Below are positions 4,125 through 28,500 of a DNA stretch of 56,878 bases, piece after piece. Position 1 is the first letter of the stretch, and the number at the start of each line of letters is the position of its first letter. Where the stretch lies: IMG/VR virus record IMGVR_UViG_3300029981_000015, positions 1 through 56,878 of that record. One strand, 5' to 3'. The stretch is from a virus (Duplodnaviria > Caudoviricetes). A model generated the notes under the pieces. That model saw only the letters and a list, made by a program, of their open reading frames with translations, was not told the DNA's origin and made no database searches. The position numbers and the translations under genes were made by a program.

Positions 4125-5102
4125 ATGTATAGTACAAATACTGTCCTAGATAGAGTCGCAAAACCAAAATTAACCATGGAAAGTATACTAGAAAAAGTAA
4201 CAGAATATGATATTTTTTCAAAATATATTGGTGATTTTAAAATAGGCTACATTTACAATAGTCCACTAAGAGAAGACAAGAATCCCTCATTTGGAGTTTT
4301 TGTGAGTAGAAAAACGGGAGATCTATTGTACAAAGACCTAGCAAGCGATGATTGTGGAAACGTATTTAAATTTGTTAAACAACTTAAAAAGCTGCAAACG
4401 TACGAAGAGACTTTGAAGACAATTTCAGATGACATGAATATAGGCAACTTAAAAGTAATGTTATCATCAGAAAACAAACGAAGATTAATTAAGGACACAA
4501 TTATAAACGTAGTCAGAAAGCCACTAAATCTTACTGACATTAAATTTTGGAATAGCTTTGGAATATCTAAAGAAACTCTTAGGATATACAAAGTTAGTGC
4601 AATTTCTAAGTTTGTGATAAATGGGATAGTAAAAGGAGTATACAAGACAGAAAGCCCTTTGTATTGTTACAAAGTGTTTAATAAATTTAAAATATATAAT
4701 CCTCTTGGGCCTAAAACGATTAAATGGAGAGGGAATTTAAACGCCCTGGACATACAGGGGTTTGAGCAGCTACCAGAAAATGGAGAATTGCTCATAATAA
4801 CTAAATCGTTAAAGGATGTTATGGTATTAAGTGAAATGGGATATGACGCAGTAGCTCCTTCGAGTGAGAGCATTACAATCCCAGAAATCGTAATGAATAA
4901 CCTAAAAAAGAGGTTCAAAAGAATACTTATTTTTTATGACAGAGACAAAGCCGGTGTGGAATATGCAAGGAAAATATCCAAAACATATAATATAAATGCA
5001 ATCTTTATAAACAAAAAATATAAAACAAAAGACGTTAGCGATTTAGTTAAAGGACTGGGATATGCAAAAGCATTACAGATCTTTGACTCAATGGTTAATT
5101 AA
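4125..5102 (+). CDS. dnaG: DNA primase (DnaG-like TOPRIM)
   Basis: Degenerate zinc-binding region SPLREDKNPSF. TOPRIM motifs IITKSLKDVM, FYDRDKAG and KDVSD. Confidence 0.85.
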   Translation: MYSTNTVLDRVAKPKLTMESILEKVTEYDIFSKYIGDFKIGYIYNSPLREDKNPSFGVFVSRKTGDLLYKDLASDDCGNVFKFVKQLKKLQTYEETLKTISDDMNIGNLKVMLSSENKRRLIKDTIINVVRKPLNLTDIKFWNSFGISKETLRIYKVSAISKFVINGIVKGVYKTESPLYCYKVFNKFKIYNPLGPKTIKWRGNLNALDIQGFEQLPENGELLIITKSLKDVMVLSEMGYDAVAPSSESITIPEIVMNNLKKRFKRILIFYDRDKAGVEYARKISKTYNINAIFINKKYKTKDVSDLVKGLGYAKALQIFDSMVN

Positions 5103-5106
5103 AGGA

Positions 5107-5230
5107 TGCCTAGGAAGTTCAGCAGGCAGAACAAACTTAATAATAAGAGGGAAACATATTCTCACTACAGTGAAGTCAGTCAACGATTCATTATTAGGTT
5201 GTGACATGGGTTCGATTCCCACCTAGGCAA
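5107..5230 (+). ncRNA. tRNA-like RNA with the anticodon loop replaced by an extended stem and a 45-nt insert
   Basis: Acceptor TGCCTAGG(5107-14)/CCTAGGCA(5222-29). D-arm GTTC-AGCAGGCA-GAAC. Stem AACTTAATAAT(5134-44)/ATTATTAGGTT(5190-5200). T-arm TGGG-TTCGATT-CCCA. Confidence 0.75.
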
Positions 5231-5321
5231 CAAATTGAACATAAGTTCAAATAGCTATCACTATTATTAACGTCATTAGCAGAAGGAGTTACCCTGTTAA
5301 TCAAAAACAAAACATATCAAA

Positions 5322-6542
5322 ATGAATATAAAAACAAACAGTGAAAATTATCTGATTAGTCCAATGGAGACTGAAAAACATTTCGGAATCAAGACGAGTA
5401 AATTTATCGTAATCGATAAAGAAACATTTGATTTCGTTATTCAGAACGACAGCGCATATATATCAGAAGGAGCCTGGATTGACGAAGAAATTGACGGACG
5501 AAAATTCCGTAAAGTGAAGAAAAGCATAATTGCTGAGTTTGGAGATATTTTATTAGAGGAATATAAAAACTCTGATAAGATTTACGAAATTATCAGCAAG
5601 AAATTTATTAACATGTCAGGACCTTCTCAGGTTATCAAAAATGCATTGGCAAATAATATGAATCTCATATTATACGGTAAAGGCGGATTTGGTAAATCAG
5701 AAGTTTGTGACGAATTATTTTCTTGTGCAGAATTAAAAGATCGTGTATTTATTAAATCACTTTCAGAAGCTACAACAGTAGAAGATTTATTCGGTGGCAT
5801 AAATATTAAAAAGATGACCGATACCGGCTCAATCGAATACAATTGCGAAAATTCGTTCGCAAATAAAGAAATCGTGATCTTTGAAGAAATCTTTGATGCA
5901 AATCCGCAAGTGTTGGCCGCACTAAAGGATACTTTGACATCTAAAGAGATCAGAAATGGCAATCAGCGTTTCCCGATTAAGACAAAAATAATTATCGGAT
6001 TGACAAACAAGACGTATGAAGAAGTAATTGAAGATGACTCAACAGAGGCATTAACTCAAAGATTTGCAGTATCTTATCCATTCCAATACAAAATTGACAA
6101 ACTGAATTCAGCAAGTTTGATTTTGAATCGCTACCCGGACTTTGGAGAAGATAAATTAGCTGCAATGGTTGATACAATTGCAGAAATGAAAGATCTTTCA
6201 CCAAGAAAGATTCTTGAGATGTCAAAATACATCAAAAACCTGGAAGTAATCAAGACGAAGACTTATTCAGAAAAGATTACAAACAATTTGATGACTCCAG
6301 TTATCAATTACCTAAAAACAAAGACGGGAATAAATGTATACAGATCATTATTTAACGAAATCGTAGCTACGAAAAAGTCAATACGAGACGAACAAATTAA
6401 TGATTACGATTCATTTATTGACACTCAAAGAAATTTAGAGATTATCAAATTGGTAACATCTAAATCAAAAGATTCTTTCGCAAGCAATGCTTCAAAAGAA
6501 TCCGAGGAATTATTAATCATGCTAGAAAAGAAGTTGTCATGA
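5322..6542 (+). CDS. MoxR/RavA-like AAA+ ATPase
   Basis: Walker A GKGGFGKS, TTVEDLFGG, Walker B-like IFEEIFDA, sensor GLTN and ALTQRF arginine finger. ATGA overlap with the VWA gene. Confidence 0.8.
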   Translation: MNIKTNSENYLISPMETEKHFGIKTSKFIVIDKETFDFVIQNDSAYISEGAWIDEEIDGRKFRKVKKSIIAEFGDILLEEYKNSDKIYEIISKKFINMSGPSQVIKNALANNMNLILYGKGGFGKSEVCDELFSCAELKDRVFIKSLSEATTVEDLFGGINIKKMTDTGSIEYNCENSFANKEIVIFEEIFDANPQVLAALKDTLTSKEIRNGNQRFPIKTKIIIGLTNKTYEEVIEDDSTEALTQRFAVSYPFQYKIDKLNSASLILNRYPDFGEDKLAAMVDTIAEMKDLSPRKILEMSKYIKNLEVIKTKTYSEKITNNLMTPVINYLKTKTGINVYRSLFNEIVATKKSIRDEQINDYDSFIDTQRNLEIIKLVTSKSKDSFASNASKESEELLIMLEKKLS

Positions 6543-10440: not shown

Positions 10441-13400
10441 TCACAACCCGGAATTCCTGTCTCTATTCAACATTTTTATTTTTCTATTCAGAATTTTAGA
10501 ACCTCTGGCTTTTTTTCTGGCATTGACTCTCTGTCTAAGTTTATCTTCCTTAGTTTCATGATAGAAAAGTGGCTTATATGAATTTTCCCCTTTATCTATG
10601 ACACTTTTATTCTCGAACTTCTGTTTCTCTAATTGTTTAATCTTATCAGCATTATCGTGCGTACTATCAAACATGTTAGCAACTCCCTGAGTCAAGTTAT
10701 ATATTCCAATCATATTCTTACTCATAAAGTACTCACGTGCCTTTAAATCGGGTTTAATAAAGTTTTCAAAGTAGTTTTTATACCCTGGAGTTAATTTAAT
10801 TAATGACTTTTGCCATTTCTTATAGTACATATATCTACCACCTTGAACTTGATCAAATAATGTACCATCAAAGAATCCATCAGATACCTCTTTTAACTCA
10901 GTTATAGGCCCTTGAGCTGTTGTGGGAGACTGTATTAATCCGAATGCATCAGCAGGAGACATACTTGATCCTAACTCCATTTCCGTTCGCATTAATAGAG
11001 TAAAAATAAACTGTTCTATAGATCTTTTTTTATCATCATCAGAACTTCCTACAAATGATTTGGCAAACAATGTGGCAGCAGCTACCAATATTAATTTAGA
11101 TATATCTCCAAGTGTTTTTCTGAAGTTATATATGTCATTTGCTTCGTATTTATCTTGCATATGACTCATTTTACCTAAATGCGTTAAATTAAATTTAGAC
11201 ATTTCAGTCAATTTCTCTGCTAAAAAACTCATCATAATCTTAGCAGACGCTCCAGGAGTCATTAAAGTACCTGATGCCATTTGTTGTTTCCTATAATTAT
11301 ATTTCTTAGTAGCAAATCTTTGCTCTGCAGCAACCTGCATCCACCCTCTATTTAAGAATAAAGCAGAAGCAAATGCATCAGTATGTAATTTACCTTTATC
11401 AGCCTGAGTCAAAGTACCGTCTAATTTACTTCCAAGATCATGTACTATGTTTGCAACATAATTCCATGTCTTTTCATTCATTATTGATGCATATTTAGGG
11501 TCTATTTTAAGGTTTCCATCAACCACTTTGAATGCATCATATAGATTACCCTCAATAGAATCGAATATCAATTCTCCTTCAGATCTTTTACCAGGGAACC
11601 TCTCTGTTATGAATTCCTCTCTAGAGTAAAATTTACCTTCAAATGGTCTAAAGTTACTAAGAACTCCAACCATCATTGGACCTTTAACTACCAAATCCCC
11701 AGCAGTATATGGACCGTAATGAAAATTAGAAAGTAAGTTCTTTACTGGAGAGAATCCATGCAGATTTTGCATGTCTCTATGTTGAGATTTAGTAACCTCA
11801 AACGCCCTCATAAAGGATATAAGTTTATTGTTTGAGAAAGAAGCATTGTCTCTAGCGATAAGGCTCGGTAAAGACATTGTAAGCTCTCTCATGCCCTTTA
11901 ATAGACCTCCATTGTTCAACCATATACCACACGTAGCTTCGGTCTTTAGATTGATCGCAGATGCAGAAAAATTACCAACTATAGAGAATAAATTTCCAGA
12001 AAGCATTAACTTTCTTACATAATTAATGAAATCTCTTACTGGCTTTGCAATAGATATAGATCTAGTATTACTAAGTATCTTTAGATTATATTGATTAGCC
12101 ATCTGATCTCCATATACAGTATTAGATACAAAGTTAGAAGCCCTGTTATATATATTACTTTGTCCTGGACCCTTTATCTCCTTTTTACTAGTATCTCTTA
12201 CGGATAGATTCTTTATGGATTCGAGTAATAAATCAATGTCATTTGAATGCTTAGACATTTCTCTAAAATTTACTGCGGCTTTATAGTACTCAGCAAATGC
12301 GCCTAATACGTCTCTAGAGATACTATCTCTGTCTTCTAGCATAGAGCGATACTTAGTAGGAACAAATCTTACTTTACTACCATCTATCCTATAATCACCT
12401 TTAGTATCGTAGTCTCCTTCCATATTGTCGTAGGCCTTCCATTTTACTTTATCTTTCATTGCCGATGCAAATCCAGACATAAATCTATCTCCACGTATTG
12501 CCCTATCTAGAAACTTTCCAGGTATCTGGGCTAACCTATATTTAGATGGGTGTTGAATATAATCATAATTAGCATTTGCTTTTGCATATCCAGCTATTAA
12601 CTTATCATGAAAATCTTTTTTTGCTGGAGAATTCTGAATTAGATCATATGCATGTTTATTGTCATATAAAGATCTTTTAGGAATCATACCTTCTTCTGAC
12701 GAATCTGGATCAAAGTTTGAATTTATATACTCTGAATCTGGACTCATTTCTGACCATAGAGAATTAGGCTCATTAAATATATCTTTTTGATCTTTTGGAG
12801 ATAATTTAGTCCATAAAGAATATAATTGTCTATATCCATTCCCATCTGTATATGCAGTCCTTTCATCAAACTCGGCAACAGCTCTAGTATTACCCATAGA
12901 GGCTTCTTGCACTGCAGCCCTTAAAGCCTTTTTATATTCATCAGTAGGTTCTATTTTTGCTATATCTTTAAATTGCAATCCCGGTTTTTGACCATATTTA
13001 ATTCTTGCACTATTTAAAGCTAGATCAATTTTCTTTACCAAATTAGCCAAAGTCTCACCATTACTATTTACAATGGATTCTAACCTAGCAGCAGGGACTT
13101 CCATTGTATCTGGGTTTCTATAAGTGTTTAATATAGCTTTTCTTCTTTCATACAAATCATCATATGCTGGTAGTTGTGGATTTTTTTCAATTGATGTTAA
13201 TTTATCCCACCATTCTTGAGTAAATGAAACTTTAGTATTATTTTTAAACCATGTATTTGCATCATCCTGAGACATCTCTTTCACAACATTTTTATATGTT
13301 TCATTAAAAAGATCTATCTTAGTTTTATAATTTATTCCCTTATTTATTCGTTTGTAGAAATCAGATATTTCATCTGCTATATTCCTCTCAATACTCCCTT

Positions 13401-16400
13401 TTAGTTTCTCATCTCCATTGAGATTTACCGTAGATGCTAAATTATTCTTAATTATTCTAAGTTCATGATATGCGTTAAGATCAGCCGGAGTCATTAATCT
13501 AGTATCTATAATTCCATCAGCATTCTTAAACGCCAATCCAAACGAAGCCATATTTTGTTTTGCGTCATTTAGAGCTTCTGAGGCCTCAGAAGATAGAGTT
13601 TTTTTAGCATTATAGTATTCTGGCAAAAACATTCTTTCTGAATGATCAGATTTCCATTTATCAAACTCCTCATTGTATTGTTTAAAATCATTAGCGTCAG
13701 ATGGAGTAGCATAATCACTAGTTAGTCCGTACTTTTTAGCAAGTGCCTTTCTAAATTCAGATATATCTTTATTGAATTTTCCTCTTAATAGATCAGATGT
13801 AATATACCCAGTAGTTTTTCCATCAACATGCTCCATAAACTCATTATAAGTAGCGATAGGATTAGTTCTTTTTATATTAGTAAAAGAGTTTGCTAAATCA
13901 TTTAGAGTACCATCAGTAGCTACTATTTTAGTTATATTAGTCTGTATATCTACAATCATTTTATCCAAAGCCCTCAAGTGCTCAGATCTTTTATTTTGCA
14001 AACTACCAAGGAATACACCCATAGATGATAAATCACTATCGACCTCATTACTTTTCTTAAGAACCTCCTTCATTGTAGGAGATTTAGCTTCATCTGCTAT
14101 ACTAGCAAATATTTTAGTTGCATTATAGTTTATAACAGACTTAACTGTCCTACTCATTTCGTCAATAGTCTTATTTATACCAGATACTTGATGAACAAGG
14201 TCATCTACAACGTGTTTTGGTAGACTATTAAATATTCCAAAATCTCTAGATTCATATATAGTACGAATAGAGTCCATTACGCTTTTGTATAATGGTAGAA
14301 AATCTCTATTAATAAACATAACATCAGAAGATGCTATATCCTCATTATTTTTCATTGCATTAGATATGTCTAGTAATTTTAAACTAGTTTTAGCAACATC
14401 TAACTCAGCAAATTTCAAGAAACTGATAGCACTTGTAGCCGCATCTGCATTATCAATAGAATTTATAAGATTTTTCATACTATTAAAAGTATGTGCATCT
14501 GTATTTTTATTCCTTTCAAGTATTTTTAAATTTGTATTTAATCCTACTTTTATATTATGCATTAATGTCTCAGCATTACTGGTGGCTATTTCTAACTGAG
14601 TAGGTAATGAAGATTCTTTTTCTTTTGCAGAAGGTATTACTATTTTAGCAGCCTCTCTCAATTTTGACTTTCTACCTAAAGAAGCCATATTTGAGATAGT
14701 TTCGCTATTCTTACTTATTGCAACATATCGTTCTCCATCGACATTTTTAGTATATATAGAATCTTCTTTAAATGCAGAAAGAATATCTTTGTATAAATTA
14801 TCACTTGGATCTATTTTTAATAAAATCTCATTGGCATTTGATTTATCTAAAGACTCAACTATTGATCTAAGAATAAATGGAATGTCTACATTTTTAGTAT
14901 TGTCTTTTATGGAGATATTAGAGATTAAAAGTGAATTCCCTAAATTATAAGATTCAAATGTGGCCATCTTATTCCCACTAGAATATTCTATAGATTTATT
15001 ATCAAAATCTACATATGATAATTTAGATAGTAAGTTTTTCCTAGTAAAATCTATATCATATATTCCGGTATCAACTAAATTTTGGTTTACTAATTCTCTA
15101 GTTAAATCATCATTAAATTTAATAGCTTCATTAAGTGTTATTTTTCTTTGTTTAAACTCATCAAAACGTTTAGCATCGATATGAGATAATAGATTACTTA
15201 TTTCAGACTCAGTTCTTATTGCCTGCTCTCCCCCTATTAAGTTTAATTTACCATCTCCATATATCAAGTAATCAGCAAGATTATCGATCGTAGCATCAGG
15301 CCTGATTTCTTCTATTGGATTAGATTTATCGAAAAGTTTATTAATGAATTTACTAAATTGTTTGAAATAATTACTAATAGCATCAAGTAATTTGCTAAAT
15401 CTAGATTTAGACTTTCCATCAGATGTAGATATATTATTTAGTTCTTTTAACTTCCTAGTAAACTTATCCTCTAACACAGTGTTTATTAGTTCGTCTAATT
15501 TTTCAGGAGACGAATAGTTACTATATAATTTTGTTATATCCGACAGTTCATCGGAATGAGCAACTGCCTCTAATGCTAACTGATTATATATATGTACTAA
15601 ATCTGGGTTGTTCTTAAGCATATTTAAGAATGGATGTCCAAACATTTCGTGCATAGTAGTTTTAGCACTAAGTCTATTTGATACTAAATAAGACATATTC
15701 TTTTCTGAATCATAGAATCCTAGTAATCCATTGTTACCTTTTATGTATTTACTATCTGGAGACCCTTCATTATATAAACGAACTGCTTCTTCTGGTGAAA
15801 CTACTTCATATCCAATTCCAAATCTAGTTTTAAATCTATCGGCAATATTAGATACTACATTTATAGTAGAATTTGACATTGGATTAGCTATTCCCAATTG
15901 AGATGAATTTAATTTAGCATCAAAATTTATCTCTGTTTGTTCTGGAGATATAATAGATTTAGGCTTATCAGTAGCCATACTTATCTTTTCAGAATCAGAA
16001 AATGGGGTATTGGCAATTTCATTATTAGACTTTACTGCGGAGGCATATGCCAATTGAATTGAAGACTCTTTTACTCTAAATCTAACAGAAACATCACTAG
16101 GATTAATAAAATCTGCAGATTTATTATCTACAATATATACTTCTATGTTTGATTTGTCAAATTTATTATACTTTCTAGTTAATTGATTAAATTTTGTCTT
16201 TGATATAAACTTATTATAATACTCCTTATTTAGTGAATTTACAGCAGTTTGCATTACCGATAAATTCTTATTATATAGGTCATCAATACTTTTATTTGGC
16301 AAACTAGGATAGAAACCAGATTTACTGACAACTGGACTTATCATATCTAAATTGCCTAACTCGTTTAGTTGCTCTAAATTTGGCCACTCATCAGTATTGT

Positions 16401-16509
16401 TTCTATCCATCCACACACCCATTTTTGCAGCAAGCATTATAGGGTGTGTCTCAGACTCATTTACAAGCGTTTTAAACGCAATTGATTGTATATTAACACA
16501 ATGTTTCAT
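10441..16509 (-). CDS. Giant virion cargo (ejected) protein with zincin-like domain
   Basis: About 2020 aa; ORF open from 16530, with MKHCVN at 16509 the likely start. HEMFGH motif at 15634-15651, helical body and basic C-tail. Directly downstream of the RNAP gene. Confidence 0.7.
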   Translation of the reverse strand: MKHCVNIQSIAFKTLVNESETHPIMLAAKMGVWMDRNNTDEWPNLEQLNELGNLDMISPVVSKSGFYPSLPNKSIDDLYNKNLSVMQTAVNSLNKEYYNKFISKTKFNQLTRKYNKFDKSNIEVYIVDNKSADFINPSDVSVRFRVKESSIQLAYASAVKSNNEIANTPFSDSEKISMATDKPKSIISPEQTEINFDAKLNSSQLGIANPMSNSTINVVSNIADRFKTRFGIGYEVVSPEEAVRLYNEGSPDSKYIKGNNGLLGFYDSEKNMSYLVSNRLSAKTTMHEMFGHPFLNMLKNNPDLVHIYNQLALEAVAHSDELSDITKLYSNYSSPEKLDELINTVLEDKFTRKLKELNNISTSDGKSKSRFSKLLDAISNYFKQFSKFINKLFDKSNPIEEIRPDATIDNLADYLIYGDGKLNLIGGEQAIRTESEISNLLSHIDAKRFDEFKQRKITLNEAIKFNDDLTRELVNQNLVDTGIYDIDFTRKNLLSKLSYVDFDNKSIEYSSGNKMATFESYNLGNSLLISNISIKDNTKNVDIPFILRSIVESLDKSNANEILLKIDPSDNLYKDILSAFKEDSIYTKNVDGERYVAISKNSETISNMASLGRKSKLREAAKIVIPSAKEKESSLPTQLEIATSNAETLMHNIKVGLNTNLKILERNKNTDAHTFNSMKNLINSIDNADAATSAISFLKFAELDVAKTSLKLLDISNAMKNNEDIASSDVMFINRDFLPLYKSVMDSIRTIYESRDFGIFNSLPKHVVDDLVHQVSGINKTIDEMSRTVKSVINYNATKIFASIADEAKSPTMKEVLKKSNEVDSDLSSMGVFLGSLQNKRSEHLRALDKMIVDIQTNITKIVATDGTLNDLANSFTNIKRTNPIATYNEFMEHVDGKTTGYITSDLLRGKFNKDISEFRKALAKKYGLTSDYATPSDANDFKQYNEEFDKWKSDHSERMFLPEYYNAKKTLSSEASEALNDAKQNMASFGLAFKNADGIIDTRLMTPADLNAYHELRIIKNNLASTVNLNGDEKLKGSIERNIADEISDFYKRINKGINYKTKIDLFNETYKNVVKEMSQDDANTWFKNNTKVSFTQEWWDKLTSIEKNPQLPAYDDLYERRKAILNTYRNPDTMEVPAARLESIVNSNGETLANLVKKIDLALNSARIKYGQKPGLQFKDIAKIEPTDEYKKALRAAVQEASMGNTRAVAEFDERTAYTDGNGYRQLYSLWTKLSPKDQKDIFNEPNSLWSEMSPDSEYINSNFDPDSSEEGMIPKRSLYDNKHAYDLIQNSPAKKDFHDKLIAGYAKANANYDYIQHPSKYRLAQIPGKFLDRAIRGDRFMSGFASAMKDKVKWKAYDNMEGDYDTKGDYRIDGSKVRFVPTKYRSMLEDRDSISRDVLGAFAEYYKAAVNFREMSKHSNDIDLLLESIKNLSVRDTSKKEIKGPGQSNIYNRASNFVSNTVYGDQMANQYNLKILSNTRSISIAKPVRDFINYVRKLMLSGNLFSIVGNFSASAINLKTEATCGIWLNNGGLLKGMRELTMSLPSLIARDNASFSNNKLISFMRAFEVTKSQHRDMQNLHGFSPVKNLLSNFHYGPYTAGDLVVKGPMMVGVLSNFRPFEGKFYSREEFITERFPGKRSEGELIFDSIEGNLYDAFKVVDGNLKIDPKYASIMNEKTWNYVANIVHDLGSKLDGTLTQADKGKLHTDAFASALFLNRGWMQVAAEQRFATKKYNYRKQQMASGTLMTPGASAKIMMSFLAEKLTEMSKFNLTHLGKMSHMQDKYEANDIYNFRKTLGDISKLILVAAATLFAKSFVGSSDDDKKRSIEQFIFTLLMRTEMELGSSMSPADAFGLIQSPTTAQGPITELKEVSDGFFDGTLFDQVQGGRYMYYKKWQKSLIKLTPGYKNYFENFIKPDLKAREYFMSKNMIGIYNLTQGVANMFDSTHDNADKIKQLEKQKFENKSVIDKGENSYKPLFYHETKEDKLRQRVNARKKARGSKILNRKIKMLNRDRNSGL

Positions 16510-16519
16510 ATATATTATT

Positions 16520-19500
16520 TTATGCGCCAAAACAGGCTTTAAGTGACTCTAGCAGGTCTTTATCCATGCTATTAAATTGTTCTTCTGTCATTTCTTTTAA
16601 TCCTGACCTTTTAAAGCCTTCATTTATAGTTTCTATTTGCTTTTTATCAATGCCATCACTAGGCATATCCTCTACTGTGAATGTAGTCTCTTCTACTTTA
16701 TTTGGCTCATTAACTACATCAGTTACAGTGGGCTCAACTACACTTTCTATATTTGATATAATTTCTTTGTTTTTCAAATCAAAAGTAAGTATATTAGATG
16801 GTTTTACATTAGCATATAGTCCATTATATTGACCGGCCATTGATGCGGCTTCTCCATACTCTTGTGCTCCAATCCTATTCTTACTACTGAATGACTCAGG
16901 AAGTATATTGTTTTTAACCATAGAATGATTTACATTATGCTCTATCATAGATAATGCATTCTTTTTAGAACCTTTTTTATCTATTGCTATATACATTGGG
17001 ATTGGGAATGATTGACCTTCAACGCTAGAGGTACCATATAATCTATATAATACATAAAATGGTTGATCTTCTTTTGGAAACATTTGAATCTTAACAAATG
17101 GTCTATTCTCTTCTATATTACCTAATCCAGATAGTGGAAATGCATTTGTATTAAAGAATGCCAATGGATATTGAACACCATTAATTGTTTTTGTAGAGTC
17201 TATCTTTGGCATAAAAACCTTTCCTTCTTGAGTATATCCAAAATGCTGAACCGTAGGGACTAAATCCTCATCATACCATCTATTTTCAAATATATCTACT
17301 ATGTCTGGTATGGTTAATGCCTCATTATCATTACTACTTAACTCATCTAGTTTATCAGCAATAAATCTATAATAACCAGTATCACGTCTATCATATTCAG
17401 ATATCTTAACGGTATTTGAGGCATAATTGTCTCCAGTACTGTAAAACTGATACAGTAAGAAATCTTTAGCAAATTCTGACATTTCAGTATTGTCACTATC
17501 AAGAGCAGAACTATAATGTTGTTTTAGCTTTTCAGTTAGCCCAGGTTCATTGGTATTATTATCCCTAGGCCTAATTTGATCAGGTCTTTCTGCTTCAAGT
17601 CTACTATATATCTCAGCAGACATTCCTCTTAAAAAGTAATTAGATTTTACGTCTTCTGGAAATCGTTGTTGAATAGAGAATAATCTTTTTGCCATAGTAT
17701 GTTCACCAAAGAACATTTTAGGGACATTAACCTCCCTTTCTTTAGATAGTTTATCAAAAAAGTCAGACTTTAATTTAGTATCAACATACTTACTGATCTT
17801 AGTAATTATATCTCTATTATCTAAGTTTCGTCTGCCCATTGCATCAAGGATCCTGTCCGTAGACATTTCCACTGATTTAGTAGACCTAAAGAATACGCCT
17901 TGACTCAAATTTTTAGATAATCCAGCACTATTATTTAATTTATTATATATAAATGTATTATTAAAGAAATCTCCAACATTTGCGAACAAACTATTTGGAT
18001 CCATCATTATCTCATTTACCTTATCGGCAAATAGTCTTTGTGCTGAGAAGGCATTACCAGCCTTTTTTGTATCGACTTGAGAATATTTTACTAATTCAGA
18101 CAATGCACTAGCATATTTACTTAATTCTTTGTATGTTTCAAGTACTACTAATTGTCCATAATAATGATCGAAGCCAGTAACATTAGTTCTTGCCATATTA
18201 TTTATAAGGGTGTTCTTGTTAAATGCATTTTCATTATGTATTTTTACAAATCCTTTATCATTTTCTTCGTATAGATTTTCTAATTTCTTTTGATCAAATG
18301 AACTTTTAGCAGTTTCTTTTGCCTTCTTTTTATAAAAAGCGATCATGTTATTAACCTCTTTATCTATAGAAGACTTATCAGAATTTCTATTTCCAGTAAG
18401 ATATTCGCTGCCCTTTCTAGCCAAAACTTTATATATATCTTTAAGTGATGGTTGACTCAAAAAGAAGAATGTCTTTTCTCCGTAACCAGCCCTAAGTAAT
18501 AATGCGGTCATCTTATATGTCCCTTGATTAACTCCCATTCTAATGATATATGGATCTTTTGCAACATCTACATGCGCATTTACCATCGCAGACAACCAAT
18601 CAAGAATTCTTAATCCATCACTACCATTAATCTTAGCAATATCTTCTAAGCCAAATTTACTTACTACATTATTGTCTTTGAATTTAAGTCCTGCAATCTG
18701 AGTTAATACATGATGTACTCCAGCCAATGCAAATGTAGGTATACCACCTTTGCCACTAGCATACTCCATCTTCTTCCTACTTTCATAAGATAGTCTAGAT
18801 TTTGCAAATGGGATATTAATCATATCATCTTTATTGCACTTGTCTATTTCTTTTAATGCAGATTTAACTGGATCTGTAACGGCATCTAGAGGTATTCTAG
18901 TCTCATTTATACTGTCTGGATTAGACACTACAGCTAACATTACATCAATAAATCTATTTTGTATTGCTTTTGCAGAGTTTGTTTGAAATTTATTTTCTTT
19001 TGAGTCGTCCATTTGGGCCTTGATAAACTTATCACCGGACTTAACAAAATTATATCTTGATATATACAATTTATCAACGTCAAAGTCACTACCAGTAAGG
19101 GCAGTAAATTCGTCAGGCATTATTATTGTATCTCCCATAAATTCAGGTAAACAATCAACAAACTTTGCTGAAATTATAGATGATAAGCCCTGAGTTGGAA
19201 TACGATAGCCAATAGCACAAGTGGCAGAATTCTCTCCTATAATATTATTATCCAGCAACCATTGTATTTTTGCATTATGGGTATTTAGATCAGATGGAAG
19301 TATATCTTTAAACATAGTAATAGATATCACTACATCCATACTACCATCAGGATTATAAAACTTTAGTTTATTACCACCATTTATTTTGTATTGGGTGTTA
19401 GTGTTATCAAATGATTTTAATCCAAATGGAGTCATTTGAATAAACATGCCTCCTGGAGTATTCACATCTACAGTACTTTTAAGTATATGTGAAAGTATTT

Positions 19501-22500
19501 TAGACTCTACAAAGGCTCCATCTACTAATGCCTGTAATGGCATGTCTTTTGGATTAGCAGGATCAAATGATGCTAACATTTCTGTAACATCACTTGGCAT
19601 ACCAGAATTCTCAGATTCAATAGCCAGGAAGTCATACATTTTCTTTGTATTAAATTCATAATTCCCATCTTCACCAAATTTTAACCCAAACTCCTTCTCT
19701 ATATCAGCTTTCCCTCTGTCTGATAATTCATTTAAAGCAGAAACCCATTCTTGTTTTAATTGAGTTCCAGTTACATCATTCTTTCCATTTATAGTTATAT
19801 TTGGGTATACTACATCAGAAATTATATTTCCCATAGCGGCTTTTTGAACTTGAGTAGCCACGGCCATGGTTGCTCCTTCGTGGGGGGTAGTTGGCAATTG
19901 ATGTCTCAAGAATTCAAATGATTGCTGTGCCACCTTAATATCATCTAGAGTCGACATAACAGACCCATCTTCTCCAGTATATATTGCAATGGGATTGTCA
20001 TTATAAGTCTTAACAGCGCTACTAAATGGAGCCATATCGATCTTCTGCTGACCTATTTTAGGATTATTCATTCTTTCGTATAGATTCCTTAGATCACCAG
20101 TGGCCATAAACTTAGGCAAAAGGAACATAGCCATCTTATCCAGTTTAGGAACATTTAAACCGCTCTCAAACGAATCGCCAAAATAAACCATCTTTAATGG
20201 GTGTAAGGCCAATTGAGATACCTTTTCATATGTATCCGCATCATCCATCCAAGACAAGTCGTCAGACTCTAATAACTTAAATGCTTCTTCAACTTTAGGA
20301 GTAAAGTAATCTTCTCCAAGCCTAGTCATAATAGATCGGTACATATATGGTGATATATATACTGTAGCATCAGTTACATTTACTTTTTCATAAGCTTTAG
20401 ATTGGTTATCTATTATTTTTTCTCCTATATCAAATATGGCTTTGTTTGAAGACCTAACTGCATCTAATTCTGATTTCATTCCTGGATTAGAATATAGTTC
20501 GCTTAAATTTGGGATTCTAGATTTACCAGACTGGATTAATAATTTATTTATCTGAGCGGCATATGACTTATTCTTAATTTCATCTATTTCAGTACTTTTT
20601 ATTATGCTATCAGATATTTCAGCGACATTGAATGAAGTAATACCATTTAATGGATGCCCTTCTGGAAAACTATTTCTCAAAGCGGTGCCAGTAGACAAAA
20701 CACTAGAAAGTCTTTTTGTTTTATCATCTGAACCCTTATAATAGGCTAAGTCCTTTGATATTAATTTATCTGTTTCAAATTCTGATATTATAGAGTTTAT
20801 AGCAGTGTTTGCTAATATGTTTGTTATAGCAACCATATTAGCATCTTTTGGAGCAACGCCAGCCTTTATATAGTCAGCAACATTACTATTATATAATGCG
20901 GCGTCAAGCGCTTTATTCTCGTACATAGTACTTTTAACTATATCACCAACATTAACTCCTTCTCGTGCCATTGTAGCGGTATATTCAGAGGTAGTCCTAG
21001 ATATAAGTCCTATTTCTTCTGCATAGTCCATCTCAAATTTGGTTGCAGCTGTAATAGTAGAACTAATCATTTTAGACTTATTCTCATAAGATTCAGAAAA
21101 GAACTTCTTATCGAGTCTCTGTATCGCTTCATCCATAGCTGCATCATTACCAATGATCGGACCTCTAGTAACTATTACTTTATCTATGTAGCCATTTAGG
21201 TCCACAAATCCATTATACTCATCACCAACCGCTTTAGAATTTATATACAAACTATCAAAATATCTAAATCTTAGTCCGTTTCCATGTCCAGCAGCCCATT
21301 TACCACTATTATCATAATGATAATTATTTATTAGATTTTTTTTATTTCCATTTTCCTCTTTATATTTTGCCCAAGCTTGCTTTATAGAATTAAACTCAGA
21401 TAAATAATACCCATTAAATATATCTATTACTTCACTAGGATATGATATGGTATTTCCATTCCAAGACATCTTTTGAGACCCCTTATCTGAAGATACCATA
21501 TCAGGCATTTTAATACCAAATATAAAGCCATATGTCTTTTTATCTGCCATCGCCGGAAGTGTTATATTGCTATCTAATAAGTTAGACATCTTTATGACAT
21601 AATCCTCCATTGGACTTATGTCAAAATAATCCCTACCTTGGTCGGCAACACCTTCTTCATATATTTTAACAAATGTACCGAATGAAATTCCTTTCGAAGT
21701 TCCATTTTTAATCTGATTTAATAGTATAGACCCCTGATTAATAGGCACATCTAACATATTTTTTAGATATTCTGGATTATTAGATATTTTATCAATAACA
21801 TCAGTAACGAAATTTCTAGAAGATATTTGATACAGATTAGATCCATCTGCCCCAGGGACCATAACTTCTTGTGGATTTGGATGTGTTTGTGCATATACTT
21901 TAGCGTAATTATTTATAGATTTTTCTCCACCAAGTAGAACCTTAGGAGTTAATTCGTTTATTTTTACTCTGTTTTTACCTCCATTGTCTTTTATAATTTG
22001 AGGCAAAATAGTAGTAAATATTTTGGCAGTATCTTTATAGTCGTTCATTAATATAGAAACTGCTCTAGATCTTGTAAATCCAGGGAAATTATTACCAATG
22101 ATCCACTCCATTGTATCCATGTCTACATCTATAGACGCAGCATTAAGTAAATCTATAAATGAGTCAAGTGCTTTATTAGCATCTTCTGTTGACGACATCT
22201 TTGTGATTGACTTTGATAATTCCTTGTATCTAGATATTATAGACTCAGCATTGCTTTTGTTAAATACAAGACCATCATCCGTAACAGTATAAAGATATCC
22301 ACCAGACATCATATTCTGACCCCATAAGATAGGCAGTACTCTAGTAGCCCTATCTATGTTACTTGATATATTCCTTATTGATCTATTATACTCGCTATCA
22401 GGCTTAGCGCTATTTGAATTATATACAGTATTAACGTAATCATGCCTATGACTATACATTGTATTCCAGAACTTAGTAATAAAGTTATCATCCATTTTAG

Positions 22501-25500
22501 AAAGTCTATTCTCTAACATTATAAAGAATGGATTTTTCTTTTCATGAGCAAGAGTTTCAATTTTCTTTTTCATTGAATCTGGAGTAGTTTCTTTATGGAG
22601 TTCATAAATCATGGTATTCCATGCTAATTCAAATTCAACAAATGATGGGAATTTAGATATTGGGTCCCTAACGACCACTGCACTATTATCTTTAATTATA
22701 GTCTCAGGGATAGTCCTAATAAAGAACTTCACTTCGGCCCTTATATTATCTCTTTTTGATATCTCATAAGAAGCTTTATCGTGTTCTTGAACTTCTCTCC
22801 CAACTATACCATCTTCAACACTATCGTCTTTTGGAGTAAATTCAGTTATGCCAGTATTTTTTACTTCTGCCTTTATGGCGGGTAAAAAGTAATCGTCAAA
22901 TCTATCGTATGCTTCTTTATATAAAGAATATCTTGCAATTTCATCAGGATTATCTTTTATCTTTTCTGCAGAAGCTAATAGACTGGATTTTAATCCTTGA
23001 TAGTCTAGCTTATTTATATCATCAATAGTTTGTATTCCGCTTATTTCAAATAAATAGTAAGTTAAACTGTTAACTAGTTTATCCTTGGCTTCTACCGTCT
23101 TAATAGACTGAAGCCCTGCTTCTTTAAATCTACGTGGAGCTCCAGCGTTATCTTCATATTTAGATGTAAATGCCTCTTTATTATAGTAACTAGGTTTGAC
23201 GCCTTTTAATACTCCACGTTCTATATCTTTGTATAATCTTTCAATATCTCTATCTTTGAAATTACGTAACGCATTAAATGCATTATAAATCTTTCTAAAT
23301 GCTATATTTACAGTAGTACCATTTTCAGAATCTACATTATTTGATAGGATTCTCTCTCTAAATTTTTCTGCTAAATACTCTTCTATTTCCTTATCAGTGG
23401 CATACTTCATAGACTCATTAGAAGTTCTTACACTATCATAAATAGCCATTCTTCTAGATCTTGGTATTAATAACAATGAAGCTACGTGATACGTCTCATG
23501 GAAGTCAGTACCCTTTTCTGCTAGTTTGTACAGGTCTATTTTACCATCAGATGATAATCCCATTGCAGATTCTCCATTATGTAAAGAAATAACATCTTCA
23601 AGTACTTTTACGTCAAAATCATCACCGAGTTTACTTTTAATGAACTTAATTGATTTTTCAGTGTCTATAAAATCAACTACTTGTTTAGAGTCATCAATCA
23701 TTCTCGTTGCACCAAAATCATCAAATTCGTCTAGCGACTTAGCGCTAGGAGTAGTAATTATTTTTGGTAAAACTATATCATTTGGCAACACTGGTTTCTC
23801 GGGGTTGCTGTATTTTAGATCTATTTCTCTAAGTGCATTTTCATATAGCAACTTAGGGCCTTGACCACCATGACTAGACTTTAATCTATTTTCATAATTA
23901 ATTTTTGCAGCATCTATCTCTAATTGTTTTGCAGATTTAGTATTATCTACCACAACAGAAGGTTCCTTCCCTAATATAGTGGGATCCATTATTGGTTTGT
24001 CTACCAGAGTAACAGAAGTATTATATGCACCATTATTGACTGGTGTTATTTTTTCAGCGCCATTAGATACTGCAACTACATTAGTCATAAACAAATATGG
24101 AGGTTCAAATACTCCATCTGCAATATCCGAAGTTAATTTTTTATTCTTAATCAACCATGCAGTCCATGTTATTCCAACATCACTCCTATTTATAGAGAAT
24201 TGTTTTGTAAAATCAACAGAATTTTCATTAGGATTTCTATCGAAAAATGCTTTAATACCTGGGAATATGTCTGATACTAGATTATCCGTATTATTTTCCC
24301 TGTTCCATAAATCATCTTTATTTATAGTCCAGGTTAAATTATTATTTATAAACTCCAATATCTCTAGTTTCTGTTTTGCGCCAATAGTGTTTACCGCAAT
24401 CTTTTCTGTACCATAGTGTAATATTCCATTATCAACATAAAATTGTTTATCTTCTAAAAAGGATTTAGTAGAATCACTACTCATTTTAGTCACATCTCCA
24501 AATCCAACCATCCTATATAATAGCGATGCTGGAGTTAAACCATAAGGAGACGTAGTATTTGTTTCTATTACTTTACCAGATGGAGATAGTGTTATTTGTC
24601 TAGCGTTGCTGCCAAACATGTCTATTGCTAATTTATATACTAAATCAGCCATTTCGGGATCAGTGTTTACTTTCTTTTTGTTTACTTTTATTTTTCTTTC
24701 AGAATTTGCATCAAATGGCTCTGTTTTGGTAATAAATATAGATCCAGCATTTTCATTTACACTAGTTCCGATAGTTTCAAATAATGAAACAACCAGATTA
24801 CTACCTTTTTCACCACGTCCATAAGCTAATGTTAAATTGGTAAGCCCTAACTTATTTACATCTGGCTCATCTAGTAGTCCAACAACTTCATGCAATCCTC
24901 TCTGAATAGCCTTTCCTTCAGAAGTCCTATTTAATGCTAATTTAGATATACCTCTATCTAAACCGCCAAGCATCCTTAATTGTAATGAATTATCTGCTAT
25001 AACCTTTAATTGCTCAGTAATTATAGAATTCCTAAAATCTCTAAGTGATTGAATTTCATCAGAAGAGTACTTTAACATACCATTTTTTTCAACAACTTGC
25101 TCCCTTTCCCCTGGGTTCTTCATGTTAAAGGCAATTGTTCTAACTTCTTTCCCTTTTTTGTATTTTATTTCTACTTTAATATAGGCATTATCCCAAGTAA
25201 GTTGATCATTCGGATCATAATTATTTGGACCAACGAAGTCATTACCAGTAATAGATAAACCACCGGATTTAAATGAATACGTGTCTCCTATTCCGGAATT
25301 GTGCTTATTTACTATTATCCTAACTTCTGCAGATTTAAATGCAACAGGATCCATTAGAAACTCTCTTATTGAAGGAATCTCTACATTAGCGAATAATGTG
25401 TGGCTTATTCTATCATGTTTAATAGAATTACTTGAGACCAATCCAGGTAATTCTTCAACTAACTGATTGAAGGCCTCTGTGTCTTCATTGTCAAGTATAC

Positions 25501-28500
25501 TTTTAAACTCTACAGAACTTTCTACCGCATTTAAAACTTCTTTATTATCATAAGTCTCATTTATAGTATCTGGTAGATCTGGTTTTTGATCGACAATAAT
25601 AGAATCCTGATTTAATTGGTTTATAAGTCTGTCTATATCTGAAACTTCATCCACTACAGATTCATCATCACTACTAATATCAGTGCTTACAACAGATCCT
25701 TTTTCATCCTTAACCTCACTTGCAATAGTATCAGCCTGGATAGGAGGAGTAACTTTTTCTGGCCCAGTAGGACTTTCAGTATTAACTGGAGGAGTAACTT
25801 CAGTAACAGGTTTAGGAATCTGAGACTCTTCATAAGGACTCACTGGAGGAACTTCTTGGGTGAAAGTATCTTGTGGTTTTATATTATCAATAGATGGAGT
25901 TATTATATCAGAACTACTATGGTATTCTCCAGTTGGCTCGGGAACGACATTCCCTTCTAATTTAATGTCATCTACTATTTGCTTTGTATTTTCAGAGTCT
26001 ATTTCCTTTTTTCTACTATCCCTATACGAATCTAAAAGTTTATCAACGAATATATCATGATGTTTTGAATCCATCGTTTTTGATCCAGTATATCCAACTT
26101 TCTTATTGGTAAGCAACTTGGACATTGTACTTTCGTATTTGCCAGATATATCAGATATGTGAGAAAGTGCTAATGTTTGAATAGCATTTTTATCCATACT
26201 AGGCAGATTCAAAGAATCAATTTGCTTGGACAATTCATCAAATGAAACATTATCTTTTTCTGATCTGTCTATTATACCATAGTTTGCTAACTCATTATGA
26301 GCAAGAATAGCGGCCTCTTGTTTCTTCTTAGATAATTCGTAATTTATTATTTTGTTCTTTCTAACTGCATGTTCATTTTTAGAATCATTCTGTATGTTTA
26401 TATCCTTAAGTGATTCAAAATTAGATAATGCATCAAATAGAGCTACTGGGGATACAAGTGGGACAACATCTGGTTTTACATAGTCAGCATAACGATCTGC
26501 CATTTCAGATATAGGAGCATAATCATTTTTCTGCTTATTATAAGATGTTAGTAATTCATTTTTTACATCGTCAAATTGTTTAGCAGAATTATCATGGTCA
26601 ATAATAAGAGAAGTAAGAAGTTTATGATTCTCAGAACCAACTCCGCCGGCCCTATTTGCATAACCCATCACACTCTTGTCCTTATATACGGATAATGTAT
26701 TTTTTGCTAACTTTAATTCATTATTAATATCTTCTGGATCTATACCTACTGGAGGATTTTTTGCTAGTTTTTCTAGGTATTTAAGAGTAGCATTTTCCTT
26801 TCCATTATTAGAGGCATCTATATATGAGCTAGTTTTTTTAATCCTATCGTGCATTTGCATATCACGAAGTACTCCAGCGTTTATTACACTATTTGTCATA
26901 TCACTTGACATGCCATCAGACAAATGAATCATGGCATTATTATGTAATGCGTCTGGTTGATATCTAGAATCATTACTTATTCCAGAAACAGCAATGGGAG
27001 CAGATGGTTCGCTCTCTATAGTACTCGAAAAAGACGATGTAAGCGTCTCTGATGGACTTATTTGAGTTGGAGGTACTGCAGTGTCACTTGTAGGTTTATT
27101 TTGCTCTGTAGTAGTTTTATTTTTATCGTACTGAGCCATTAACTCATTATATACGTCATTAAATTTTGCATTTTCGGGAATGGCTTCTTTTGATATATAG
27201 TCCTTCTCTCCACTAAGGTTTACACCCAAAGCACTTCCATTGGCTGATTCTCCAGTTACTATCTGCATCCCTTTTTCAGGGGATCGTACAATAGGAATCA
27301 TACCATCAACAGAAAGGCCGCTAAGAGCAGTCCTTACTCTATTTTCTAAAGCATTTTTTTCTATATCTGGATTAACAGTTTTTGTTTTCTTATATGAATC
27401 TAATTCGTCTTTTAAATGTTGAGAAGTCATTGTAAACGTTCTCTTGATTTCATCATCATTTAATTCTACTCTTTTCCCATCTACAGTAGTACCGAATGTT
27501 TTGTCTTCTCCAGTTTTTGGATGAACGTAAACAGCCCTACCATCATTCGTAACAGATAAAGATACGTCTCCATTGGAATCAGTAGCTCTTTTAAACATTG
27601 CGGATCTAGCGGCATATGATGCATGAGCAAATGGTACTGTTGCAAGAGAGAACATTAATCCAGTTTCTAAACCAGATCTAAATGTATCCATCCATCCTTC
27701 AGCATCTGTATGTTTGCCTATAATTGCCTCATTTAATAAATTTTGAGCAACTCCAATCCCTTCCATTGTAGCAACACTATGAAGAGCACCTTTCCCAGCA
27801 GTTGTTGCAAATGACTTTATCGCACCAGGCATTTGATCTGCGAATGTTTTAAATACTCCTTTTCCAGCCTCAGAAACTACTTCTGGGTTTTTTGAAATAA
27901 AATTAAATACAGACTCTTGAACTGCTTTTAGTGGAGTCTTCTTTATTATACCACCTAACCCACTTGATAATTTTCCAAGAGGCAATGAATATATTAAGGC
28001 AGTACCTATTCCTAATGCGCTCTTCGTATCATCGCTAATTGGTTTCCCTGTCTCTTTTTCATAATTGTTTGCAAGATTTAATGCATCTGCATATCCAGTA
28101 CCAACGAAAGACGCAGTTACTCCAGCCCCAACTACTTCTGGTTGGCCAGATAATATACCTCCAATCGTAACTGCGGCTAGGGGAACAATTCCTCCTGCTT
28201 TAGCTTGCCATGTATCAGGAAGTTGACTTTCTGCTTTAGAAACATTAGTAAGATGCTCTACTGTACTAGCCTTGCTCTGTTTAGCACCTTCTGAATATAT
28301 ATCAGATAGGGTCTTATTCTCTTTATCTCCCAGGAACGTTGGAATTGCATTTCCTTCTGGATCGGTTAATAATCCTACTCTAGCATTTGCGGCAGCGGAT
28401 GTCATTCTAATCCTGGATATATCAGATATAGTTGCAACAAATTTATCTGGTATTGTCTCAGTGCCTATAGCAATACCTCTTAATGCCTGTCCTAATCCCT

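Follow-up and report, generated by a model that had tools for sequence, protein, structure and literature searches.

The DNA analyzed here, hereafter the window, is the whole 56,878-nt stretch of the IMG/VR record IMGVR_UViG_3300029981_000015, a 56.9-kb fragment with an estimated completeness of 57%; among named phages, members of the Suoliviridae (Crassvirales) come closest, at ~70% nucleotide identity along part of the primase gene. The + strand neighbours of interest form a replication module, encoding a DnaB-like helicase, a Sak4-like annealing protein, a DNA primase and an exonuclease, and directly behind the primase gene lies a tRNA-shaped element (5107-5229), the subject of this study. 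The primase open reading frame (ORF; 4125..5102, + strand, 325 aa) matched Pfam Toprim_2, Toprim_4 and Zn_ribbon_DnaG as well as PHROG 12622, DNA primase (E = 5.5e-45); its stop codon TAA occupies 5100-5102, and the element begins after a 4-nt gap. A 92-nt spacer separates the element from an ORF coding a MoxR-type AAA ATPase (5322..6542, + strand, 406 aa; Pfam bpMoxR, E = 2.5e-16, and AAA_5). These Pfam and PHROG matches agree with a preliminary description made from the DNA letters only, which had placed the element between primase and MoxR genes; the primase is of the Toprim/DnaG type with a zinc ribbon. As far as comparison with related phages indicates, the element is a non-decoding, tRNA-derived RNA that belongs to a family conserved at a fixed site.

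The cloverleaf of the window copy begins at T5107 (position 1) with the 5′ strand of the acceptor stem (5107..5114, + strand, as are all its parts), which forms 8 bp with the 3′ strand at 5222..5229, G5114 contributing the eighth, inner pair; this assignment follows from the list of base pairs and from alignments to the Rfam and family models. The D arm (5117..5132) consists of the stem GTTC/GAAC (5117-5120/5129-5132) and the loop AGCAGGCA, which holds the GG of the elbow. At the anticodon-arm position, an 11-bp helix (5134..5144 and 5190..5200), composed of 10 Watson-Crick pairs and one G.U pair (5137/5197), encloses a weakly structured, copy-specific insert of 45 nt (5145..5189). A short variable region, GTGACA (5201..5206), leads to the T arm (5207..5221), with the stem TGGG/CCCA (5207-5210/5218-5221) and the loop TTCGATT, and the acceptor stem is followed by A73 and CAA (together ACAA, 5230..5233), CCA not being encoded. 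All stems of the preliminary description were recovered, i.e., the 8-bp acceptor stem, the 4-bp D stem with its GG loop and the 4-bp T stem, as was the 11-bp arm enclosing 45 nt. We also agree that the window copy lacks a 7-nt anticodon loop, the helix and the 45 nt standing in its place, and that no reading of it gives U33 or an encoded CCA. The 8/4 cloverleaf proposed earlier is one valid reading, but register with the relatives equally allows a 7/5 reading, in which A5206 becomes the unpaired partner of C5222, giving the T stem an A×C mismatch, and 3 nt are left as a linker; the acceptor/T stack is 12 bp either way. An 8/4 stack is possible in the window copy only, the relatives being 7/5 or 6+1/5. 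Constrained to the cloverleaf with its long arm, the window copy folds at -31.6 kcal/mol against a free minimum of -32.3 kcal/mol; the fold has a z-score of -3.0 against shuffles, with an equally good fold in 1 of 200. In both the window copy and the family, G.U pairs are present only when the element is read on the + strand, which points to an RNA made in the direction of the genes.

Default ARAGORN called no tRNA and no transfer-messenger RNA (tmRNA) in the window, and Rfam gave no match there at gathering thresholds. When applied to 5050-5320 alone, the Rfam tRNA model (RF00005) aligned all of its positions 1-71 with a score of 27.5 bits (E = 6.6e-4), and put a 63-nt insertion at the anticodon-arm position. 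At lowered thresholds, ARAGORN called ~100-170 "tRNAs" in the window, with permuted tmRNA calls elsewhere in the window only.

Loci were gathered with the primase as query, giving 15, then 72, and then, from a metagenome scan, 12 loci. The family loci (L019-L042, n = 24) carry primases 49-85% identical to that of the window, and a tRNA-like element is found 3′ of the primase stop in 21 of them, which with the window copy makes a small family of 13 distinct sequences. The element is absent at L037 and L040, and L027 is uncertain, with a possible acceptor/T-arm minihelix only. A 7-nt anticodon loop occurs in none of the 13 distinct elements, ARAGORN called no tRNA at any family element, and unconstrained folding gives the cloverleaf in most members. 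The arm at the anticodon position ends in a GAAA (five elements), GTAA (one) or TAAA (one) tetraloop on a stem of 4-6 bp, ends in a triloop (three), is absent (one, at L024), or is expanded and branched (two, 67 nt in the window and ~51 nt at L028). The earlier judgement that this is not a decoding tRNA is therefore supported and extends to the homologous elements. The preliminary description had named as evidence against itself homologues with a normal 7-nt loop, this copy being a one-off decayed insertion; the first of these was not encountered among the 13, while the 45-nt insert is indeed unique to the window copy. Calls within the family differ in strength: the element shared by L041 and L042 was called by hand, shows a 13-nt overlap with the primase stop and was reported by neither covariance model, and those at L025 and L026 are weakly supported by the first model (E = 0.0043 and 0.081). 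The 12 loci from the metagenome scan yielded one new element match, at L092, scoring like L033 (97.6 bits). Position 1:72 (5107/5229 in the window) is unpaired, as A×A or A×G, in 8 of the 12 elements tabulated and is T-A or A-T in four, including the window copy. Most family members are preceded by GGA.

MAFFT alignments misplaced the D and anticodon arms, and a seed covariance model (R1), model-fitted alignments and a hand register by coordinates were used instead. In the model-fitted alignment of 10 relatives, which is biased toward structure, 94.4% of the cells are paired versus 67.4 ± 2.4% in shuffles (0 of 500 reach this value), both sides have changed in 20 of 22 pairs, and pairing drops to 25-43% when partners are slid by 1-3 columns. 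With a hand register of 12 elements, chosen by the analyst (L025 being left out because no position could be assigned to its T arm), pairing is seen in 179 of 192 cells of the acceptor, D and T stems, versus 119 ± 4.6 in shuffles (0 of 2000). A second covariance model (R2), for which 10 relatives were used and the window copy and L028 were excluded, was run against both strands of the whole window; it recovered 5104-5233 at 33.0 bits (E = 4.3e-6, model positions 1-75 of 75), the next-best match in the window scoring 13.0 bits, and placed a 52-nt insertion in the window copy exactly at the tetraloop. The same model found L028 at 32.3 bits.

The base of the window helix, AACTTA/TAGGTT, corresponds to the 6-bp stem of the relatives (ATCTTA-GAAA-TAAGAT at L019, CTCCTA-GAAA-TAGGAG at L023), so the window copy looks like the family hairpin with ~55 nt replacing the tetraloop. 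We treat the 45-nt insert as a putative lineage-specific expansion of a dispensable arm. The two mini-hairpins that had been described within the insert are present, but both use C5163 and cannot both form fully, and the insert alone (5145-5189) folds at only -3.3 kcal/mol. No similarity to it was detected in phage records, the window or the fetched loci, and none of its 26-mers had an exact match in viral contigs; within the window, its complementarity does not exceed 11-nt chance matches. The idea of a repeated mini-element was rejected, no second copy being found in the window or the fetched loci. Relative to R2, insertions at the anticodon-arm position are also seen in tRNA-like sequences at L040:560-680 (50 nt), L054:934-1062 (51 nt) and L054:1316-1477 (104 nt). 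Further tRNA-like sequences include L054:391-457 and L063:1431-1479, some being reduced to little beyond an acceptor/T-arm minihelix, and those of L040, L054 and L063 sit in tRNA clusters beside the primase. Inserts of different lineages show no visible mutual similarity.

The position of the element is tied to the primase. The gap between the primase stop and the element is 4-9 nt in 9 of the 13 elements, and is 60 nt (two), 190 nt (one) or -13 nt (one) in the others. The next start codon follows within 12-20 nt in 4 of 13; as a promoter of its own would not fit into spacers of 4-9 nt and 12-20 nt, polycistronic transcription is expected in those four relatives. The downstream gene codes the ATPase in the window and at L019, L023-L026, L028, L029 and L035, and is another gene at L033, L036 and L038; a change of downstream gene does not part the element from the primase. 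At its 3′ end, A73 is followed by C and then by A, T or G, and the trailer reads ACAA in 7 of the 12 elements tabulated. The same trailer occurs after bona fide tRNA-Leu, tRNA-Pro and tRNA-Glu genes of related phages, which suggests, at the sequence level, that the element shares the 3′ processing route of real tRNAs. Five related, mostly complete genomes carry one to three normal tRNAs elsewhere (His, Arg, Glu, Pro; 7 of 7 fetched were confirmed by ARAGORN), and anticodon-less matches to the tRNA model in these genomes are primase-adjacent only, in three of the five at E ≤ 1. At L019 (L019:2479-2668; also L020-L022 and L004-L007), ~190 nt of extra non-coding DNA lie between the element and the stop of the primase, which at 85% identity is the closest to that of the window; Rfam found nothing else on L019 at E ≤ 1.

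We propose, at about an even chance, that the element is a tRNA-shaped signal for processing by RNase P and RNase Z within the replication operon, possibly with release of a small RNA. Among the three options raised in the preliminary description (a decoy or scaffold, a processing signal splitting the primase-MoxR transcript, or a tRNA with an unusual intron), the processing signal fits the context best, given the gaps of 4-9 and 12-20 nt and the tRNA-type trailer. The element would be transcribed as part of the replication-module mRNA, and it keeps the parts read by host tRNA-processing enzymes, namely a 12-bp stack of acceptor stem and T arm, the elbow formed by the D and T loops, and A73. 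The 5′ cut, by RNase P, would fall at the start of the element, a few nucleotides past the primase stop, and RNase Z would cut after A73. Cleavage at both sites would split the primase message from the downstream one, presumably to the benefit of the phage, and free a small tRNA-shaped RNA that would probably receive CCA. The anticodon arm would be dispensable for such a signal, and under this proposal that is why it can be a tetraloop hairpin, absent or expanded among the relatives.

Several observations weigh against this proposal and should be considered alongside the biases of the two alignments mentioned above. When the window is compared with its closest relatives (primase 80-85% identical), the element cores agree at just 15-18 of 39 positions, while third codon positions of conserved residues in the same comparison are 65.6-69.3% identical; the core thus diverges more, and turnover above the synonymous rate is not predicted by a simple conserved signal. 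The next gene is preceded by a hairpin-bearing spacer of 92-105 nt in the window and the three relatives nearest to it; a promoter could lie in that spacer, so punctuation is not required there. For a pure processing signal, the acceptor and T arm would be enough, but most members also retain a D arm, which recognition of the elbow might explain. Finally, the window copy falls below the RF00005 gathering cut-off (27.5 versus 29 bits), and the Rfam tRNA model matched only 3 of the 12 relatives scanned at E ≤ 1, two passing the cut-off (L038, 38.1 bits; L019, 37.0 bits) and one failing it (L033, 27.0 bits). As for the turnover itself, the elements of L019 and L033 share 30 of 39 core positions, and the corresponding primases are 85% and 59% identical to that of the window. 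By this sequence comparison, the slot thus appears to have been refilled, or to evolve faster than neutral, in some lineages, which could reflect recombination among mosaic phages, selection on shape only, or conflict with the host. A search for a donor tRNA with the 22-nt T-arm/acceptor strand returned no exact match in viral contigs or in the genomes of 185,579 species.

The freed tRNA-shaped RNA might instead itself be the product, acting as a decoy or competitive binder (of tRNA-directed defence nucleases or transferases, or of processing enzymes) or as a natural tRNA scaffold for a payload in the arm, which we regard as possible but doubtful. Retention of the whole tRNA body including the elbow, more than a minihelix, would suit such a role, as would the turnover beyond synonymous sites among close relatives, which is expected in an arms race, and the recurrence of inserts at the same arm in the window, at L028 and in the tRNA-like sequences of L040 and L054. 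The frequently unpaired 1:72 also fits a role outside translation; the 1:72 mismatch of initiator tRNA disfavours EF-Tu. Phage-host conflict over tRNAs is documented, and the tRNA-targeting defence nucleases described in passages of the same source cut the anticodon arm or loop (PMC13056530), which is exactly what the element lacks. Furthermore, no partner emerged, the inserts do not visibly resemble one another, the window insert has only chance-level (11-nt) complementarity within the window, and no tRNA-related enzyme was recognized among the 26 window ORFs scanned. A broader version, in which crAss-like phages possess a class of excised, CCA-tailed, anticodon-less tRNA bodies acting in trans as decoys or payload scaffolds, seems unlikely to us; if it were true, the faster-than-synonymous turnover would be the trace of an arms race, and the 45-nt and 50-104-nt inserts would be payloads. 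It is improbable that the element stays uncut and works in cis, with a compact tRNA-like fold at the 3′ terminus of the primase mRNA blocking 3′-to-5′ exonucleases or tuning the coupling of the two cistrons. The start of the element 4-9 nt past the stop in most members and the primase linkage across differing downstream genes would be in line with this, but a simple hairpin would suffice, and the retained T-loop sequence, D-loop GG, A73 and tRNA-type trailer point to recognition by the tRNA machinery.

Decay offers another explanation, namely that the element is a functionless tRNA pseudogene derived from a cluster beside the primase. Distant crAss-like phages do carry real (Leu, Gln, Lys, Thr, Pro) and degenerate tRNA genes beside the primase, the insert and the loss of the anticodon resemble damage, and L037 has no element. 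However, the stems are kept paired by double changes across primases only 51-85% identical, only one arm is damaged, a stable tetraloop neatly capping it in 7 of 13 elements, and the element is retained in 21 of 24 loci of compact genomes, making a pseudogene a poor prospect. We consider it very improbable that the element works as DNA, with a cloverleaf in the single strand forming a replication origin, a loading site for primase or a recombination site. The adjoining primase gene and the mosaic flanks (77-86% identity upstream, an unrelated element, 70-94% downstream) would accord with it; GC skew, however, turns at ~10 kb, where gene direction flips, and not at 5.1 kb, the ORFs scanned show no integrase context, and the motifs for tRNA tertiary contacts and strand-specific G.U pairs are conserved. 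A decoding tRNA with a small spliced intron is the account we find hardest to credit, to the point of practical dismissal. With introns allowed, as the preliminary description had suggested running it, ARAGORN does call a tRNA-Ser(tga) with a 29-nt intron at 5107-5231, and a CAT triplet lies in a possible 7-nt loop at 5153-5159. We judge that call an artefact, as it ignores and breaks the 11-bp helix and leaves the anticodon stem mismatched, and no register yields U33 together with a 7-nt loop. Relatives have tetraloops or no arm, hence no anticodon to restore, and Rfam matched no group I or other intron family to 5050-5320 at E ≤ 10. An insert of 45-55 nt is also far below the size of a self-splicing (group I) intron. 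The unusual intron put forward earlier, whether of the group I or the bulge-helix-bulge type, is thus rejected. A group I or other ribozyme in the insert was considered and set aside, the sole match being a 14-bit hairpin ribozyme (E = 3) that we take as chance.

Known tRNA-like RNAs provide a context for the processing signal that we favour. In MALAT1 (source of mascRNA) and MEN-beta, a 3′ tRNA-like fold directs RNase P to make the 3′ end of the upstream RNA, and the small RNA is CCA-tailed and has no functional anticodon loop; these are eukaryotic nuclear long non-coding RNAs (lncRNAs), in contrast to the phage element, which has no sequence relation to them. The tRNA-like domain of tmRNA and the bacterial Y RNA YrlA are mimics that keep the acceptor/T arm or the elbow and have no anticodon. 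We rejected tmRNA for our element as there is no tag reading frame, no pseudoknots, no default ARAGORN call and no G3.U70 in any of the 12 elements tabulated, and Y RNA as no Ro-binding helix was seen by eye; Rfam gave no match to tmRNA or Y RNA families. Allo-tRNAs combine an 8/4 or 9/3 cloverleaf with an ordinary anticodon loop and, in most cases, a long variable arm; they were likewise rejected, since 8/4 is possible only in the window copy and the anticodon loop is missing. The engineered tRNA scaffold and the tRNA-like RNAs of gammaherpesvirus MHV68 combine a tRNA body with a foreign or shortened anticodon arm, are processed by the tRNA machinery and do not decode. The former is a laboratory design and the latter belongs to an RNA polymerase III unit, unlike the phage operon setting here. 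With canonical tRNA (RF00005), the element shares the acceptor, a D arm with GG, a T arm with TTCGAWT, A73 and the trailer of related-phage tRNAs, and it departs from it in the missing 7-nt anticodon loop and U33 and in the commonly unpaired 1:72.

The closest parallel in arrangement is offered by the t-elements of plant mitochondria, which passages of PMC1920247 describe as non-canonical cloverleaves by coding regions, whose ends coincide with mRNA ends and which are cut by RNase P and RNase Z; an excised t-element RNA can, according to the same passages, receive a non-encoded C or CCA. Like these, the phage element is a tRNA-derived, non-canonical cloverleaf beside protein genes with a conserved T arm, and it shows the tRNA-like fold, the conserved acceptor and T arm and the place next to a coding region by which t-elements are recognized, with a longer transcript being probable. 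Unlike them, it belongs to phages of bacteria and its processing is a prediction, its arm is tetraloop-capped or expanded and not generally eroded, and it is tied to the primase across the clade. Full-text literature searches returned no earlier account, for Crassvirales or other phages, of a tRNA-like family that is conserved, fixed in position and devoid of an anticodon. One preprint mentions, but does not interpret, "ambiguous tRNA-like" calls of low score in a crAss-like genome, and a large screen lists unnamed tRNA-like candidates from IMG/VR (PMC10690425).

Processing signals and mimics of tRNA shape are already known from organelles, eukaryotic lncRNAs and animal and plant viruses. If the phage element is processed as proposed, it would add tRNA punctuation of phage operons, provide a handle for mapping the transcription units of crAss-like phages, and explain the "pseudo-tRNAs" that gene finders report in these abundant gut phages. 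If it acts in trans, it would represent a phage counter-measure or an RNA scaffold of a new kind. Genome annotation should list such elements neither among decoding tRNAs nor among suppressor candidates.

The spacer behind the element (5230-5321) contains a hairpin, TTGAAC-ATAA-GTTCAA (5235..5250, + strand), followed by an AT-rich stretch and a second possible hairpin. It is 93.5% identical to that of L023 and 82% to that of L024, far above the element or the 3′ end of the primase gene; the L023 element is unrelated in sequence to the window element despite the 93.5% identical spacer. This spacer may contain a promoter of the ATPase gene or a site that regulates it. Promoter-like sites between 4700 and 5700 are no commoner than in shuffles, and the scan of the same interval gave two terminator-like sites, both on the opposite strand. 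The conserved motif 3′ of the hairpin is not enriched in the window (22 matches versus 14 ± 4 expected), and a search for closer relatives through the conserved downstream flank returned only two loci already known. Elsewhere in the window, two very long ORFs occupy the minus strand, at 10444-16509 (~2022 aa; no PHROG match at E ≤ 1e-5) and at 16523-29899 (~4458 aa).

In more distant crAss-like phages (primase 40-50% identical), real tRNAs upstream of the primase are accompanied by further tRNA-shaped elements for which ARAGORN gives no call at default settings (L095:836-907, L095:1091-1174, L047:764-846, L047:1240-1320, L046:1404-1489 and L093:1107-1189). At the anticodon-arm position, these elements have 4 bp closed by a GCAA tetraloop, a 17-nt loop, or 8 bp closed by a loop of 5 or 10 nt, and most of them are followed by ACAA. 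Directly behind a tRNA-Arg(tct) at L108 (G005:C1:90050-90380), its anticodon arm recurs together with a T arm but with no 5′ half, an arrangement whose sequence looks like a partial tandem tRNA duplication.

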